This document shows, piece by piece, positions 38,011 through 62,858 of a stretch of 63,373 bases of DNA (its first letter is position 1; the number at the start of each line of letters is the position of its first letter). Both the position numbers and the translations under genes were made by a program. The notes beneath the pieces were generated by a model that was not told the origin of the DNA, did not search any database, and saw only the letters and a program-made list of their open reading frames with translations. Source of the DNA: a virus (lineage: Duplodnaviria; Heunggongvirae; Uroviricota; Caudoviricetes); IMG/VR virus record IMGVR_UViG_3300028854_000008, positions 1 to 63,373 of that record. One strand, 5' to 3'.

Positions 38011-41000
38011 TTGAACGATTTTTTAGTTAACCCACACCCATCCCAAGTTACAGTATTTGAAGACAGCTTTTCTGAAGAAGTATGGTCAAATACATATAAA
38101 AATTATAAAGACAAAGATATTAATGATACTTTTAATCGTGTTGCACAAGCAATTGCAAGCGTAGAAAAAACAGAAGATTTAAGAAAAGAATGGGCAGAAA
38201 AATTTTATGATATGATGTGTAATTTTTCTGTCGTTCCTGGTGGAAGAATTTTAGCAAATGCAGGTACAGAATTTCGTGGAACAAGTTTAATTAATTGTTT
38301 TGTTGGTCCAACTCCAAAATATGATTGCGATAGTTTATCTGGAATTTTAGAAGTTTTAAGAAGCCAATCAATTACTTTAAAGAGCGAAGGTGGGTGGGGA
38401 AAGAATTTTTCTTTTATCCGACCAAGAGGAACTTTTATTAAAGGAATTGGTGTTGAAACTCCTGGAGCAGTAAAGTTTATGGAACTATTTGACAAGAGTT
38501 CTGAAATTATTACAGCAGGTTCTGGAAAGAAAGCTTCAAATAAAAAAGCAAAAGGAAAAATAAGAAAAGGGGCGATGATGGGAATTTTGGATATTTCCCA
38601 TCCTGACATTATTGAATTTATTACTATAAAGCAAACTTCCAATAGATTATCTAAATTTAATCTTAGTATAAACTGCTCTGATAAATTTATGGATAAAGTA
38701 TTGTTAGTTAGTAAATTAAAAAAAGAAAGTGGTAGCCAGGAACAAATCGATGAAATAACATGGGATCTAATTTTTCCAGATACAACTTATGAAAAATATA
38801 AAGAAGAATGGTGCGGCGATATTCAAGATTGGCAAGAAAAAAATTATCCAGTAATTGTTTATCAAACAGTAAAAGTAGATTGGTTATGGAACCTTATTAC
38901 TCAATCAACTTATTCAAGAAATGAACCTGGAATTTTATTTTTAGATCGTGCAAATAAATTTAATGAATTAAATTATGCTGAAAAAATATTTGCAAGTAAC
39001 CCATGTGTTACTTTGGATTCATGGGTAACAACAAGTCGCGGAGCAAAACAAGTTAAAGAATTATTGGGAATTCCATTTACTGCTATTGTTGATGGTATTT
39101 GTTGGAATAGTTCTGAAAAGGGATTTTTTGTATCAGGAAATAAGCCTATTTTAAAAATAAGTACAATAAATGGCTATACCTTAAAAGTTACAGAAAATCA
39201 TAAAATAAAAATTTTAAGAAATAATAAAATTGATTGGATTGCTGCTGGAAAATTATCTATTGGTGATCAAATTTTTATTAATAATCATTCGTCAGTAGAT
39301 GTTAAAATATCTGAAAAAAATGATGCTATTGGATATGCGTTAGGATTGCTGGTTGGGGACGGAAATATTAGTGGAAAAAATGCTCATTTATGTTCTTGGG
39401 GAAATACAGAAGGAGTTAAAAATGTTCGTAATAAAGTTATGCAAGAATTGCTTCAATATGCTTCTCCAGCAAAAACTTTTAAAGGATGGCATGAAGTAAA
39501 AGGAAGAAATGAATATCGAATTCAATTTAAGGATTTGCATTCTTATGCAATATCATATGGACTTACTTCATCAAATAAACATGTAAATAAAACAATTGAA
39601 GAAGATATTTATATCAGCAAAGGATTTATTCGTGGGATGTTTGATGCTTATGGGTCTGTTCAAGGAAATAGAGATACAGGTTTGAGTATTCGTCTAAGTC
39701 AAAGCAATTTAGAAGATTTGCAAGCAATTCAACGAATGTTAGTTAGATGGGGAATTGTTTCTACCATATATGAAAACAAGAGAGATGAATGTTTGAAGGA
39801 TATGCCTGATGGAAAAGGTGGAAAAAAAGAATATCTATGTAAAGCAAATCATGAATTGGTATTATCTAAAAGTAATATAGAAAAATATTTAAATATTATT
39901 GGATTTTATGATTCAGATAAAAAAGAAAAATGTGAAAGACTTTTAACTGAATATGTTTATGGATTACATAAAGAAACATATTTAGCAGAAATATCCTCAA
40001 TTGAAAATTTTCCAAATGAAATTGTAGCGGATTGCGAAATCCCTGGAATTAATGCATTTGATTGTAATGGATTGGTAATTTCAAATTGCGGAGAGCAATT
40101 ACTTTCAAATGAAAATATTTGTTGTTTGGGATCTTTAAATCTAACTCAATTTATTAATAAAAATAGAACTGGATTTGATTTACATAAATTAGCGAAATAT
40201 ACAAAATATTTAATAAGATTTTTGGATAATGTAAATGATTATTCAGATGCTCCTCTTCCAGAATACATTAATTCAATGAGAAATAAACGAAGAATTGGCG
40301 CAGGATTAATGGGATGGGGAAGCGCATTATTTATTCTCAAAGTCAAATATGGTTCCAAAGAATCAACAAAGCTAAGAACTGAAATTTTAAAAACTTATAC
40401 ATTGGCTGGTGTTGAAGCGTCATTGGATTTAGCTGATGAAAAAGGAATGTTTAATTTATGTGAGCCAGAAAAACATGCCTTTAGTCCATATTGGGATAAT
40501 ATTGATTTGCCAGAAAATCTTCGTAAAAGAATTCTCAAGAATGGTATTAGAAATTCTTCACTATTTAGTTGCCAACCAACAGGAAATGCTGGTGTAACAG
40601 CTCAGATTGTATCGGGTGGAATTGAGCCCGTATTTATGTCTGAATATATTAGAACAGTTATCGTATCTTCAACGCCGGATCATATTAAAGATGTAACTCC
40701 AAATTGGAATCAAGGAGAATGGGCTGAGACTAATATGTTTAAATTCTCCCAAGAAGGAGATGAGCAAATTTTACGCGGTGTGGATAGTAATGGAGTTGTA
40801 TATAAAATCGATAAAAATAGAGGATTAACAAAAGAAGTTCTATGTCAGGATTATGGAGTTAGATATTTAACTAAATTTGGAGAGTGGAATCCTTCTGCTG
40901 ATTGGGCAGCAACAACTACTTCTTTATCAGTCAAAGATCATTTGGTTGAATTAGAGGGATTTGCAAAATATTTAGATAGCAGTGTATCAAAAACGATTAA

Positions 41001-41682
41001 TATTCCCAATGATTATCTATTTGAAGATTTTCAAAATATATATTTAGATGCATACAATACTGGGTATATCAAAGGATGTACCACATATCGTTCTGGATCA
41101 ATGACTTCTGTTCTTTCAGCAGTTGATCAAAAAAATGATGATATAGATGAAGAAGTTATTTTAGAAGATGTAAAATTGCCTGATAATATGTCTGCTGAAA
41201 TGAAAGTTCTGCATGATCATGAAGGTGATAGTAGTCGTAAATGGTATGTAACGATTAGTTTGAATGAAAATAAAGCACCAGTGGCAATATTTGTTCAAAC
41301 CAATGCAATGGAAAAATCAGTAACAACGAATGATGCTATTGAAAAATTATTTGCGTTGGCTAAAGTAAAAGGTATTCCAGAACAATATATAGAATCAACA
41401 TTTAAAAAATGCAATAATGATTCTAATAGTGTTAAAATTGCTAGAGCAATCGGATTATTATTACGTCATGGAGTAAGAATCAAATATATTGTTGCTGAAA
41501 TAGATAAAGTTGATGGCGTTACTTTTTCAAGTTTTCTATTTCATATTAAAAAGATGCTGGGAAGTTTTGTGAAAGATGGCGAAAAAATTGATGGGGCCAA
41601 ATGCACAGAATGTAATGGTCAACTTGTTTATGAATCAGGGTGCCAGAAATGCCTGCAATGTGGAAATTCAAAATGCGGATGA
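38011..41682 (+). CDS. nrdJ: Class II (B12-dependent) ribonucleotide reductase with intein, C-terminal TSCPD-like domain and Zn ribbon
   Basis: PGGRILANAG, LINCFV, NP-[intein]-CGEQ, CCLGSLNL, RRIGAGLMG, QPTGN, SVSKTIN, KGCTTYR; terminal CxxC...CxxCGxSKCG. Confidence 0.9.
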   Translation: MNDFLVNPHPSQVTVFEDSFSEEVWSNTYKNYKDKDINDTFNRVAQAIASVEKTEDLRKEWAEKFYDMMCNFSVVPGGRILANAGTEFRGTSLINCFVGPTPKYDCDSLSGILEVLRSQSITLKSEGGWGKNFSFIRPRGTFIKGIGVETPGAVKFMELFDKSSEIITAGSGKKASNKKAKGKIRKGAMMGILDISHPDIIEFITIKQTSNRLSKFNLSINCSDKFMDKVLLVSKLKKESGSQEQIDEITWDLIFPDTTYEKYKEEWCGDIQDWQEKNYPVIVYQTVKVDWLWNLITQSTYSRNEPGILFLDRANKFNELNYAEKIFASNPCVTLDSWVTTSRGAKQVKELLGIPFTAIVDGICWNSSEKGFFVSGNKPILKISTINGYTLKVTENHKIKILRNNKIDWIAAGKLSIGDQIFINNHSSVDVKISEKNDAIGYALGLLVGDGNISGKNAHLCSWGNTEGVKNVRNKVMQELLQYASPAKTFKGWHEVKGRNEYRIQFKDLHSYAISYGLTSSNKHVNKTIEEDIYISKGFIRGMFDAYGSVQGNRDTGLSIRLSQSNLEDLQAIQRMLVRWGIVSTIYENKRDECLKDMPDGKGGKKEYLCKANHELVLSKSNIEKYLNIIGFYDSDKKEKCERLLTEYVYGLHKETYLAEISSIENFPNEIVADCEIPGINAFDCNGLVISNCGEQLLSNENICCLGSLNLTQFINKNRTGFDLHKLAKYTKYLIRFLDNVNDYSDAPLPEYINSMRNKRRIGAGLMGWGSALFILKVKYGSKESTKLRTEILKTYTLAGVEASLDLADEKGMFNLCEPEKHAFSPYWDNIDLPENLRKRILKNGIRNSSLFSCQPTGNAGVTAQIVSGGIEPVFMSEYIRTVIVSSTPDHIKDVTPNWNQGEWAETNMFKFSQEGDEQILRGVDSNGVVYKIDKNRGLTKEVLCQDYGVRYLTKFGEWNPSADWAATTTSLSVKDHLVELEGFAKYLDSSVSKTINIPNDYLFEDFQNIYLDAYNTGYIKGCTTYRSGSMTSVLSAVDQKNDDIDEEVILEDVKLPDNMSAEMKVLHDHEGDSSRKWYVTISLNENKAPVAIFVQTNAMEKSVTTNDAIEKLFALAKVKGIPEQYIESTFKKCNNDSNSVKIARAIGLLLRHGVRIKYIVAEIDKVDGVTFSSFLFHIKKMLGSFVKDGEKIDGAKCTECNGQLVYESGCQKCLQCGNSKCG
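39004..40086 (+). mobile_element. Intein (361 aa) with LAGLIDADG homing-endonuclease domain inserted at the RNR active-site NPCxE motif
   Basis: Starts CVTLDSW, block B VTENH, LGLLVGDG and GMFDAYG motifs, ends VISN before extein Cys. Confidence 0.92.
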
Positions 41683-60204: not shown

Positions 60205-60279
60205 GGGGCAGTAGCTCAGAGGGAGAGCGCTGCGTTAGCATCGCAGAGGTCGAGATTTCAAAATTCTCCTGCTCCACCA
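60205..60279 (+). tRNA. tRNA-Ala, anticodon AGC
   Basis: G3:U70; stem CTGCG/CGCAG, loop TT-AGC-AT; encoded CCA. Confidence 0.9.
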
Positions 60280-60353: not shown

Positions 60354-60425
60354 GGGGAATAAGTGTTGATAGGAGCACGATAGATTCGCAATTTATAAGG
60401 GTGAGGGCAGTTCTCACATTCTCCA
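60354..60425 (+). tRNA. tRNA-Ala, anticodon CGC, non-canonical T-loop (GGCAGTT)
   Basis: GGGGAAT/ATTCTCC with G3:U70; loop TT-CGC-AA; no encoded CCA. Confidence 0.7.
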
Positions 60426-60426
60426 C

Positions 60427-60487
60427 AAGTTATTGAAAATAAAGCACTTATTTTTTACTTGACAAATGATCTAGAATTTAGTATTAT
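60427..60487 (+). promoter_or_regulatory. Conserved upstream element plus sigma70-like promoter for tRNA-Ala(TGC)
   Basis: AAGTTATTGAAAATAAAGCACTTA; TTGACA(60459)-N17-TATTAT. Confidence 0.75.
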
Positions 60488-60506: not shown

Positions 60507-60599
60507 GGGCTATGGGGCTGCTAGGGTGGCCACTGGTTTTGCACTCCAGAATCATCGAGAAATCGATACAGCGGGATTCAAATTCCCGATAGTCCACCA
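60507..60599 (+). tRNA. tRNA-Ala, anticodon TGC, with long class II variable arm
   Basis: GGGCTAT/ATAGTCC with G3:U70; loop TT-TGC-AC; V-arm ATCGA-GAAA-TCGAT; CCA. Confidence 0.85.
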
Positions 60600-60645: not shown

Positions 60646-61056
60646 GTAGCAAGAAATTGGTGCAACACAGCACGAAGTAGCACTCCAAATGCAGCGAATG
60701 AGAATTCGTTCAACAGATGGACAGACACATAATGTTTACTTGTAAAAGTGTTCTGACCTTAACGTGCCTGCGATAGTGAGTTGAATGGTGAAATGCCAGA
60801 AGAAAGTTCACCAGCCAATGAAGTTTAAAAATCGCTTTAGTAGCGATCTGATAGTAAATCAGTTCAGGAAGTATTTGACAATTGAAGAGAATATTGCAGA
60901 GCAACAGTGCTCTGTTTGAATATGAAAGTTACACCCGCCTACGTGGCAGTCCTAACTGAGACAGCATCACGACTTCAGGTGGCACGATGGTTGTAACGGG
61001 GCAAGCTTTCAGACTAATTAACAATTAGCGGCTGCGTACTGCCCGTAAAGTACGCA
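60646..61056 (+). ncRNA. Putative large (~400 nt) structured non-coding RNA
   Basis: Own promoter, no credible ORF, GC-richer than flanks, at least 10 helices including nested long-range stems; ends before an AAAGTTT spacer. Confidence 0.75.
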
Positions 61057-61076
61057 TAAAGTTTTGAAGTAAATAT

Positions 61077-61173: not shown

Positions 61174-61291
61174 AGATCAATAGCTCAATTGGTTAGAGCA
61201 ACGAGATTAACAGATCAAGTCGTAAAGCCACAAGCCTAAGATACTTGAAGTCACTCGTCGGTTGAAGGTTCGAGTCCTTCTTGATTTACTA
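61174..61291 (+). tRNA. tRNA body with a 41-nt insertion in the anticodon loop (anticodon ambiguous, possibly TAA)
   Basis: AGATCAA/TTGATTT acceptor, canonical D- and T-arms, stem ACGAG/CTCGT enclosing 48 nt. Confidence 0.75.
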
Positions 61292-61300
61292 GAAAAGTTT

Positions 61301-61419
61301 AACTCTGAGTCGCAAGACTATCGAAGTGACTAGGAAACTAGCTGGCATAACGAAATATTATGTTGGACCTTGAGAGTGACCACAGATGAATCTCAGTGAA
61401 AGCTAGAGATTTCAGAGTT
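61301..61419 (+). ncRNA. Putative ~120-nt multi-hairpin RNA
   Basis: Closing stem AACTCTGA/TCAGAGTT; hairpins AGTC-GCAA-GACT, CTAG-GAAA-CTAG, GCATAA/TTATGT, AATCTC/GAGATT; flanked by AAAGTTT spacers. Confidence 0.65.
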
Positions 61420-61429
61420 ATAAAGTTTT

Positions 61430-61506
61430 GCCGCGTTCGTATAACGGATTATTATGCTCCGCCTTTAACGGAATCGATATGGGTTCAAATCCCATGCGCG
61501 GCACCA
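61430..61506 (+). tRNA. tRNA-Lys(TTT), atypical C33
   Basis: TCCG/CGGA stem, loop CC-TTT-AA, A73, CCA. Confidence 0.75.
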
Positions 61507-61520
61507 AAGTTTAGATGTAT

Positions 61521-61597
61521 GCGTTCGTCGTATAGCGGCTTATTATACTTGTCTCTTAAACAAGCTGACGTGAGTTCAAATCTCACCGAACGCACCA
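61521..61597 (+). tRNA. tRNA-Lys(CTT)
   Basis: CTTGT-CTCTTAA-ACAAG, CCA. Confidence 0.92.
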
Positions 61598-61613: not shown

Positions 61614-61730
61614 GAGATTGTAGCTCAATTGGTAGAGCAACGCCCTTTTTTCGGGATGCTTCTTTGAGAGAGCATTCGATGGATGCTTTCAAAAAGGCGC
61701 AGGTTGTGGGTTCGATTCCCACCAGTCTCA
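61614..61730 (+). tRNA. tRNA-Lys(TTT)-like body with a 44-nt insertion in the anticodon loop
   Basis: GAGATTG/CAGTCTC acceptor; CGCC-CTTTT...AA-GGCG enclosing 51 nt. Confidence 0.78.
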
Positions 61731-61785
61731 CAAAGATTTGAAATTAAAACCATCTTCGCATAAATAAAGATGGAGGATCAATTAA

Positions 61786-62406: not shown

Positions 62407-62511
62407 AGCCGTATAGCTCAATTGGTTCAGAGCATTCCCCTTATTTAGGGCCTGTGCATCAGACCTTAAATAAGGGAAAGGTTGATGGTTCGATCCCATC
62501 TACGGCTACCA
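62407..62511 (+). tRNA. tRNA-Ile-like body (anticodon TAT or AAT) with a 27-nt insertion in the anticodon loop
   Basis: AGCCGTA/TACGGCT acceptor, TTCCC/GGGAA stem enclosing 34 nt, CCA. Confidence 0.8.
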
Positions 62512-62526
62512 CAAAGTTTAAATGTT

Positions 62527-62586
62527 GGCTTGTAGCATAATTGGCAATGTGTGACCCTGTTAAGGTCAAAGATGATGGTCCAGCCA
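62527..62586 (+). pseudogene. Degenerate tRNA-Asn(GTT) lacking most of the T-arm
   Basis: TGACC-CTGTTAA-GGTCA intact; T-loop and 3' T-stem missing. Confidence 0.65.
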
Positions 62587-62597
62587 AAATTTAAAGT

Positions 62598-62716
62598 TTC
62601 GCTGTAGGGAAAATATACCCCGCTGCATGAGGCAGAAAGATATTGAGGGGCTGGTCAACGGCTATAGACGCCCAGTGAGTAAATATTTGATGGTGCAAAT
62701 CCATCCGGCGATACCA
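62598..62716 (+). ncRNA. tRNA-like RNA with a ~55-nt variable-region insertion; identity unclear
   Basis: TCGCTG/CGGCGA acceptor, GGG/CCC D-stem, CTGC/GCAG arm, T-arm GATGG-TGCAAAT-CCATC, A-CCA. Confidence 0.6.
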
Positions 62717-62723
62717 ATTTTAT

Positions 62724-62858
62724 GGGATGGTAGCTCAGTAGAAGAGCAATGGCTATGAGGGGTAGTCTAGCGACGGTTAGATGAGACTCAAGTGCAAAAG
62801 TCATACGTCGAGAAGTCTGAAGGCCAAGGACATTGTGCAAATCCCTCTCATCCCATCA
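62724..62858 (+). ncRNA. tRNA-like RNA with a ~60-nt insertion in the anticodon arm and a degenerate T-stem
   Basis: GGGATGG/TCATCCC acceptor, canonical D-arm, TGGCT/GGCCA stem enclosing a long insert. Confidence 0.55.

Follow-up and report, generated by a model that had tools for sequence, protein, structure and literature searches.

The window that we analyzed (63,373 nucleotides) makes up the first half of a linear phage contig of 127 kb (G000), which is about 49% complete, with 33% G+C and the standard genetic code; near-identical DNA is present in peat metagenomes, with no RNA run among the sequencing runs listed. The tRNA array of the contig spans about 60 to 85 kb. As presented in Table 1, we found in this array a tRNA-Lys(UUU) gene interrupted by 44 nt, followed by a gene for an HNH endonuclease and by a tRNA-Ile(UAU) gene with an insert of its own. 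A preliminary description of this DNA had placed the interrupted gene third, behind two uninterrupted tRNA-Lys genes, and these do lie upstream (UUU at 61430, CUU at 61521); a relative, G001, has no counterpart of the one at 61430. Three tRNA-Ala genes (60205-60279, 60354-60428 and 60507-60599, with AGC, CGC and UGC anticodons, the UGC one with a long variable arm) are also present in the window. Three ORF-free, G+C-richer segments (60660-60820, 60840-61060 and 61303-61420) with the AAAGTTT spacer motif of the array at their borders gave no Rfam match, some of them having complementary ends, and are candidate non-coding RNAs.

Rfam recognized 61614-61730 as a tRNA (RF00005, 58.1 bits) with an anticodon loop of 51 nt. 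In pattern scans for the same tRNA type, we obtained 156 uninterrupted matches, 32 of them viral and 124 bacterial, and all read UUU-AA. Excision of exactly 61650-61693, between U36 and A37 (anticodon U34-U36 at 61647-61649), gives the anticodon arm of these matches, and no other junction does. The joined exons form a canonical cloverleaf with a 7-nt loop, a UUU anticodon and A73, which ARAGORN calls tRNA-Lys(ttt). The gene is a tRNA-Lys(UUU) split at 36/37, and the Lys(UUU) identity proposed earlier was right, the joined exons and the uninterrupted orthologues being in agreement. Other anticodons reached by shifting the junction (UUA, ochre; UAA or CAA, Leu, the ARAGORN call; AAA, Phe) were rejected, since the 156 uninterrupted matches all have UUU-AA and the variable arm of this gene is short. 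In a related phage (L004, NAMPT 85% identical), Lys(CUU), Lys(UUU) and Ile(UAU) stand in the same order, the Lys(UUU) orthologue is uninterrupted and the HNH gene is absent. The joined sequence is closest to the tRNA-Lys of peat Terracidiphilus genomes (64/73), which hints at an Acidobacteriota host, short of proof because the same anticodon arm occurs in other phyla. An assembly error was ruled out: contigs of runs X4 and X6, which are not marked as source, span the insert with 0 differences, and nine other assemblies carry the same 120 bases unchanged. A joint that skips exactly these 44 nt in three DNA runs was discarded, with only 21 letters on one side and relaxed likeness; it most likely comes from the tRNA-Lys of other organisms.

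We found in the phage genome an Rnl1-type ligase (T4-like), a PHA02142/Rnl2-type ligase, a polynucleotide kinase-phosphatase (PNKP) and a CCA-adding enzyme, with further ligase-like frames, including a PF09414 ligase frame, and a cyclic-phosphate receiver protein. In the examined 49% of the genome, we found no gene for EndA, RtcB or RNase III and no match to RF00028 (group I intron). T4 Rnl1 and Pnkp are able to splice cut tRNA halves (PMC1920235). The PF09414 RNA ligase frame (G000 ~81585-82244) is broken by a single in-frame TAG near 81765, the genome being otherwise standard-code, and a ribonucleotide reductase large subunit in the window (38011-41682) bears an intein with LAGLIDADG.

Table 1. 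Features of the tRNA-Lys(UUU) locus, in window coordinates.
Feature	Position	Strand	Remarks
tRNA-like gene with 41-nt anticodon-loop insert	61174..61291	+	insert 61211-61251 if at 36/37; joined loop non-canonical (A32, C37)
tRNA-Lys(UUU), uninterrupted, diverged, C33	61430..61506	+	redundant with the interrupted gene; scores 36 in global alignment with the joined sequence of 73 nt
tRNA-Lys(CUU), uninterrupted	61521..61597	+	syntenic anchor common to L004 and L061
tRNA-Lys(UUU), exon 1	61614..61649	+	acceptor 5' strand, D arm, anticodon stem 5' strand, C32, U33, U34-U36; from Rfam and uninterrupted orthologues
Insert, 44 nt, at tRNA position 36/37, putative intron	61650..61693	+	sole junction restoring the loop of 156 uninterrupted matches; 43-nt homologue in L061
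GGATGCTT, copy 1	61654..61661	+	predicted partner is the start of exon 2, not AGCAUUC
Dominant predicted hairpin, 18 bp, interrupted	61657..61701	+	insert into exon 2; replaces the anticodon stem
GAGCATTC (contains AGCATTC, 61671-61677)	61670..61677	+	partner of copy 2, and of copy 1 transiently in transcription
GGATGCTT, copy 2	61681..61688	+	3' arm of the dominant 10-bp inner hairpin
tRNA-Lys(UUU), exon 2	61694..61733	+	A37, A38, anticodon stem 3' strand, short variable region, T arm, acceptor 3' strand; A73 at 61730
Hairpin with ATAAATA late-promoter-like motif in loop	61750..61773	+	overlaps the GGAGG ribosome site of the HNH gene
Free-standing HNH endonuclease, 204 aa	61786..62400	+	Pfam HNH_3 below cut-off; PHROG HNH, E=1e-23
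tRNA-Ile(UAU) with 27-nt insert	62407..62511	+	insert 62445-62471 if at 36/37; anticodon arm extended as a continuous helix; L004 orthologue uninterrupted

Conservation of the insert and the adjacent HNH gene

A relative located through its HNH protein (L061, 91% identical) carries the same tRNA-Lys gene with a 43-nt insert. The last 40 bases of the insert are identical in the two phages (40/40), the differences being confined to its first few bases. The HNH genes of the same pair differ at 70 of 615 bases and at 42 of 205 third codon positions (20%), and the comparison of the insert with these third positions was significant (Fisher, p=0.0004 for the 40-nt core and p=0.009 for the whole insert). 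The insert therefore looks selected, its 40-base core being unchanged against 20% third-position divergence in the adjacent gene. The exons show eight differences, including U6-A67 to C6-G67, U5.G68 to U5-A68, U33 to C33 and, at the 3' end, CAA to CCA; the acceptor-stem changes in L061 are compensatory, and CCA is encoded there. Overall, in this one allele pair both the insert and the tRNA frame look to be under selection, a conservation that recent recombination could mimic. Viral and metagenome pattern scans for more homologues of the insert gave only chance matches or the same phage, cultured phages had no region similar to the locus, and the contigs of the NAMPT relatives stop before reaching the tRNA array. 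An origin of the insert from the variable arm of the tRNA-Tyr at G000 83512 was rejected, the score being equalled in 22 of 200 shuffles.

The layout upstream of the HNH gene, with a late-promoter motif and a hairpin at the ribosome site, has been described for T4 segB and I-TevI (PMC2988022). When the HNH homologues were examined, a tRNA-Lys(UUU) gene adjoined or overlapped them in six of seven distant loci (L062, L063, L065, L066, L069 and L071, the Lys gene of the last being read by eye); the seventh, L068, lies on a contig too short to tell. The Lys(UUU) genes at these six loci are diverse and all uninterrupted. From this context we infer that the HNH protein is probably a homing endonuclease of the free-standing kind, with Lys(UUU) genes as its target; an insert at 36/37 would give such genes one route to immunity, and the insert may also block homing cleavage. 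It is not needed for immunity, because most HNH-adjacent Lys alleles are without it. Elsewhere in the contig (G000 66899-67304), an HNH gene lies between the relic 5' half of an L004-type tRNA-Asn and an insert-bearing Asn gene, overlapping the start of the latter.

Further inserts and tRNA-like genes

Position 36/37 also fits two more inserts of this array, those of the Ile gene at 62407 and of the tRNA-like gene at 61174. The Ile(UAU) insert has ten continuous pairs, and at 36/37 it shows a 2-nt 3' overhang, the geometry of an RNase III cut; its removal there fits a staggered cut of this type. An RNase III-type staggered cut of the Lys insert was rejected, with only five pairs and then mismatches in a disfavoured fold. 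In an unrelated, 99%-complete phage (L101, IMGVR_UViG_3300045988_105113, reverse strand 1316-1466), a complete 75-nt tRNA-Asn(GUU) with CCA is nested at 36/37 of a tRNA-Lys(UUU); Rnl1, Rnl2 and RtcB were not detected in this phage.

In the tRNA-Asn(GUU) gene at G000 67295, 50 nt are inserted at 35/36 (G000 67330-67379; L001:4331-4380), with a counterpart in L004 (L004:19719-19768). The two inserts are of equal length, both form an end-to-end stem and a T-arm-like hairpin, and they agree in their last five bases but otherwise differ in sequence. Counted from the T loop, the Asn insert reads to us as a cut-down tRNA spanning +1 to 76, on which an RNase P cut would fall at the 5' junction. For tRNA-shaped introns, it is more suitable as a test case than the Lys insert.

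Orphan tRNA-like genes with short variable arms and with loops of odd size containing UUAA, UUGA or UUAG were observed at G000 64428-64498, at L004:17711-17783 and in L062 at ~9852 and 10787, and the 61174-61291 gene would join them once its 41-nt insert was removed. Two tRNA-framed RNAs of the window (62724-62858 and 62598-62716) carry inserts in the anticodon loop and T arm, or in the variable region, and no canonical tRNA can be rebuilt from them. The tRNA-Asn at G000 66810 recurs at window positions 62526-62587 as an exact but truncated copy of 64 bases, without its T arm; in this position L061 has the complete gene. In another unrelated phage (L038:9900-10770), a repeated CAGCAAT module replaces the anticodon arm in several tRNA-framed RNAs, which adjoin a gene whose end looks TROVE/vWA-type by eye.

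Predicted folding of the precursor

The U run (61646-61651), the A run (61691-61695), the two copies of GGATGCTT and AGCATTC all lie where the preliminary description had placed them. From these elements it had proposed a switch with two alternative folds, in which the two runs would pair and hide the anticodon while both copies would compete for AGCATTC. Using a nearest-neighbour model, which ignores tertiary contacts and modifications, we obtained the 61657-61701 hairpin as both minimum free energy (MFE) and centroid structure in G000; the MFE fold was the same in L061 and unchanged at 10 and 20 °C. In this fold, both alleles keep the acceptor, D and T arms and copy 2 pairs with GAGCAUUC. 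Beyond copy 2, the helix is extended by pairing between the 5' portion of the insert and bases 37-44 of exon 2, which ousts the anticodon stem; the native stem has a probability of 0.003-0.006, with U34-U36 unpaired at 0.96 or more in both alleles.

The proposed competition is predicted only during transcription: when the nascent chain is 68-72 nt long, copy 1 pairs with AGCAUUC, and it gives way as soon as copy 2 has been transcribed. At equilibrium the pairing belongs to copy 2 (P=1.0, against 0.0 for copy 1), the best fold with copy 1 on AGCAUUC being 7.8 kcal/mol worse than the minimum. Likewise, the U run and the A run become likely to pair only when the native anticodon stem is forced (P=0.77-0.88 at U33-U36), which costs 5.3 kcal/mol in G000, whereas their equilibrium probability is about 0.01 and UUU stays unpaired. 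Because copy 1 pairs first on the nascent chain and copy 2 then wins, the two folds are predicted to succeed one another, the first transient and the second final, instead of forming a balanced switch. A two-state switch calls for exclusive folds of similar stability, and the alternatives here lie 5.3-7.8 kcal/mol above the minimum. The idea of a switch hiding the anticodon is thus not supported, the predicted equilibrium fold losing the anticodon stem and leaving UUU free.

Compared with shuffled inserts, the 8-mer direct repeat was modestly above chance (157/20,000 shuffles), the whole RNA folded better than 396 of 400 versions, and the pairing of the insert with exon 2 was marginally above chance (matched in 27/400 and 48/400). 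A new 7-nt "anticodon" hairpin from CCC/GGG was rejected, with only 3 bp, and 2 bp with a 6-nt loop in L061.

The junctions were also compared with the known intron classes. A bulge-helix-bulge (BHB) is absent from them (0/4 central-helix pairs), as are a group I core (P3-P9) and a terminal G from the 44-nt insert, which ends in A. A tRNA shape was not found in the Lys insert either: its ends give no acceptor stem, and its UUCGA motif is out of T-arm register with the junctions. Hammerhead-like self-cleavage was rejected, the core motifs being absent by eye and Rfam giving no match. In the predicted fold the 5' junction is single-stranded and the 3' junction lies within a helix, which matches no known cutter.

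Fate of the insert and comparison with known systems

We favor, with a probability of about 0.45, a short non-self-splicing intron of the Lak type, which would be cut by some nuclease and resealed by the phage Rnl1 and PNKP, a reading in line with the spliced product for which the preliminary description had suggested a search. The host-like tRNA-Lys(UUU) would then be transcribed as a precursor, interrupted at 36/37, that is predicted to retain its acceptor, D and T arms and to be unable to decode, because the hairpin of the insert takes the 3' strand of the anticodon stem. A host or phage endonuclease would cut both ends of the insert, and the halves would be joined by T4-like Rnl1 and PNKP, or by another phage RNA ligase. 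In the DNA, the insert splits the conserved anticodon arm, the probable target of the adjacent HNH endonuclease, and the gene context suggests that insert and HNH gene may spread together, as in collaborative homing. Our literature search found no mechanism for the removal of phage tRNA "introns", a question that dates from the 2019 description in Lak phages.

This intron reading draws on the exact excision that restores a known arm, on the uninterrupted L004 gene without an HNH neighbor, on the identical core and compensatory exon changes of L061, and on the unrelated insert, a whole tRNA-Asn with CCA, at the same 36/37 of the same tRNA type in L101. The Lak introns after position 36, the ligase, PNKP and CCA-enzyme set of the genome and the HNH genes beside Lys(UUU) in six of seven loci are consistent with it. 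Against it stand the absence of a splice signal, a junction geometry that fits no known cutter, an L101 phage without detectable Rnl1, Rnl2 or RtcB, the insert-bearing genes at 61174 and 62724 that cannot rebuild a canonical loop, the single allele pair behind the conservation, and the insert-less state of most HNH-adjacent Lys alleles. In its fullest form, the proposal would be a minimal tRNA intron of a bacterial virus, with no ribozyme, BHB or tRNA shape. The hairpin of this intron would prevent a host-type tRNA-Lys from folding until the intron is excised by a nuclease, perhaps one of host defence, and the tRNA resealed by PNKP/Rnl1, and the intron would travel with a free-standing HNH endonuclease aimed at tRNA-Lys(UUU); taken as a whole, we hold this to be improbable.

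The main competitor, which we regard as rather doubtful, is a dead or dying allele: the insert would kill the tRNA and make the DNA immune to the adjacent HNH endonuclease, leaving decoding to the diverged gene at 61430. A second intact Lys(UUU) gene, the one missing in G001, is what would be expected if the interrupted gene were dead, and the tie of the HNH family to Lys(UUU) genes, the predicted loss of the anticodon stem, the CAA end in place of CCA in G000 and the missing splice signal point the same way. However, a sequence serving only as a DNA spacer would not have to stay identical over 40 bases while synonymous sites diverge by 20%, and the compensatory exon changes and CCA of L061, the position of the insert exactly at the site of other phage tRNA introns and the phage-encoded CCA-adding enzyme also speak against a dead allele. 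An unspliced, functional tRNA-like RNA seems unlikely to us; here the intact elbow and acceptor, with a long rod in place of the anticodon arm, would mimic a tRNA, or act as a decoy, towards proteins that recognize the elbow or the acceptor end. Conservation of both the insert and the tRNA body would be accounted for, as would the rod-like fold of both alleles and of the Ile gene and the several tRNA-framed RNAs of the array that are unable to rebuild a normal loop, yet the exons retain a perfect host-like Lys anticodon arm that is poorly paired in the unspliced fold, and the pairing between insert and exon 2 hardly exceeds that of shuffled sequences. The two-state switch first proposed, which would hide the anticodon and free a reserve tRNA-Lys on demand, for instance under a host anticodon nuclease, is very unlikely. 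In its favor, L061 retains the two repeats and the two runs of G000, the copy-1 fold is predicted to come first in transcription, the A run pairs with U33-U36 once the anticodon stem is forced, and the two interrupted tRNA types, Lys(UUU) and Asn(GUU), are AriB targets (PMC12409363), but the states are 5-8 kcal/mol apart with the same fold favored at 10 and 20 °C, the 7-nt anticodon loop is unreachable by refolding and requires cutting, and the AriB site is absent from the exons.

Regarding anticodon nucleases, AriB cuts U36AAUCA41 just before A41, a U39A change abolishes this cleavage, its targets include Lys(UUU) and Asn(GUU), and PrrC requires a modified A37 beside the anticodon (PMC12409363). 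The Lys(UUU) and Asn(GUU) genes are both interrupted in this phage. Since the exons read U36AAGGC41, the characterised AriB site is absent with or without the insert, and this enzyme would need no blocking. The precursor may plausibly resist PrrC, since the insert moves A37 away from the anticodon, and any insertion at 36/37 would do likewise. The earlier suggestion of a decoy Lys tRNA fits poorly, as a decoy would be expected to display the anticodon stem-loop, which is predicted to be absent here; the diverged C33 gene at 61430 would be a better candidate for an ordinary nuclease-evading tRNA (PMC10264068). The nuclease-resistant tRNA-Lys(UUU) of phages, such as that of T5 against PARIS (PMC12409363, PMC10264068), likewise have an altered anticodon arm, but they are point changes in mature working tRNAs, to which the 61430 gene corresponds better than the interrupted gene.

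The 120-nt RNA is a small test case: one orthologue lacks the insert, a natural variant exists, the mature product would be host-like, and candidate ligases are encoded in the same genome. Its insert can be set beside the rod-type (Ile) and tRNA-shaped (Asn) inserts of this array. Splicing of this RNA would mean a protein-dependent tRNA splicing route without EndA in bacteria and their viruses; without splicing, the locus would be an example of homing endonucleases reshaping phage tRNA arrays.

Among the known systems, T4 SegB and collaborative homing (PMC2988022) share with this locus a free-standing endonuclease in a phage tRNA cluster, the late-promoter motif, the ribosome-site hairpin and an ORF-less insert in the probable target gene next door. 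Unlike SegB, a GIY-YIG enzyme, the endonuclease here is of the HNH type, its partner is a tiny non-self-splicing insert and not a group I intron, and the target is putative. The protein-spliced introns of archaea and eukaryotes (EndA/TSEN, with RtcB or Trl1) are similarly short and non-catalytic, lie in the anticodon loop and require a nuclease and a ligase; they differ in their position at 37/38 instead of 36/37 and in their BHB, and the present case comes from a bacterial virus with no EndA or RtcB found in the examined 49% of its genome. Bacterial group I introns occur at tRNA position 36/37 in Azoarcus tRNA-Ile and Agrobacterium tRNA-Arg. The insert has the same position as these and a 5' exon ending in U, whereas it measures 44 nt against about 200 nt or more and has neither a catalytic core nor a terminal G.

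The tRNA introns of Lak megaphages were described as "enigmatic" and highly conserved (Devoto et al. 2019, PMC6784885). In our reading of Table S6 of that work, they follow position 36, measure ~80-115 nt and end in a nested tRNA-like element, a shape reported for one of them and visible in the others (PMC6784885). Such tRNA inserts are also reported for many alternatively coded jumbo phages (PMC13037316). The Lys gene shares with them a large-phage tRNA split in the anticodon loop after position 36, insert-less alleles in relatives, an insert better conserved than the adjacent DNA (in one allele pair here), no Rfam match and a phage RNA ligase. It differs from them in its 44 nt, its lack of tRNA shape, the predicted invasion of exon 2, the standard genetic code and the peat habitat. 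Overall, the insert is neither of the BHB nor of the group I type, and descriptively it resembles the Lak-type phage tRNA introns in a shorter form that is not tRNA-shaped.
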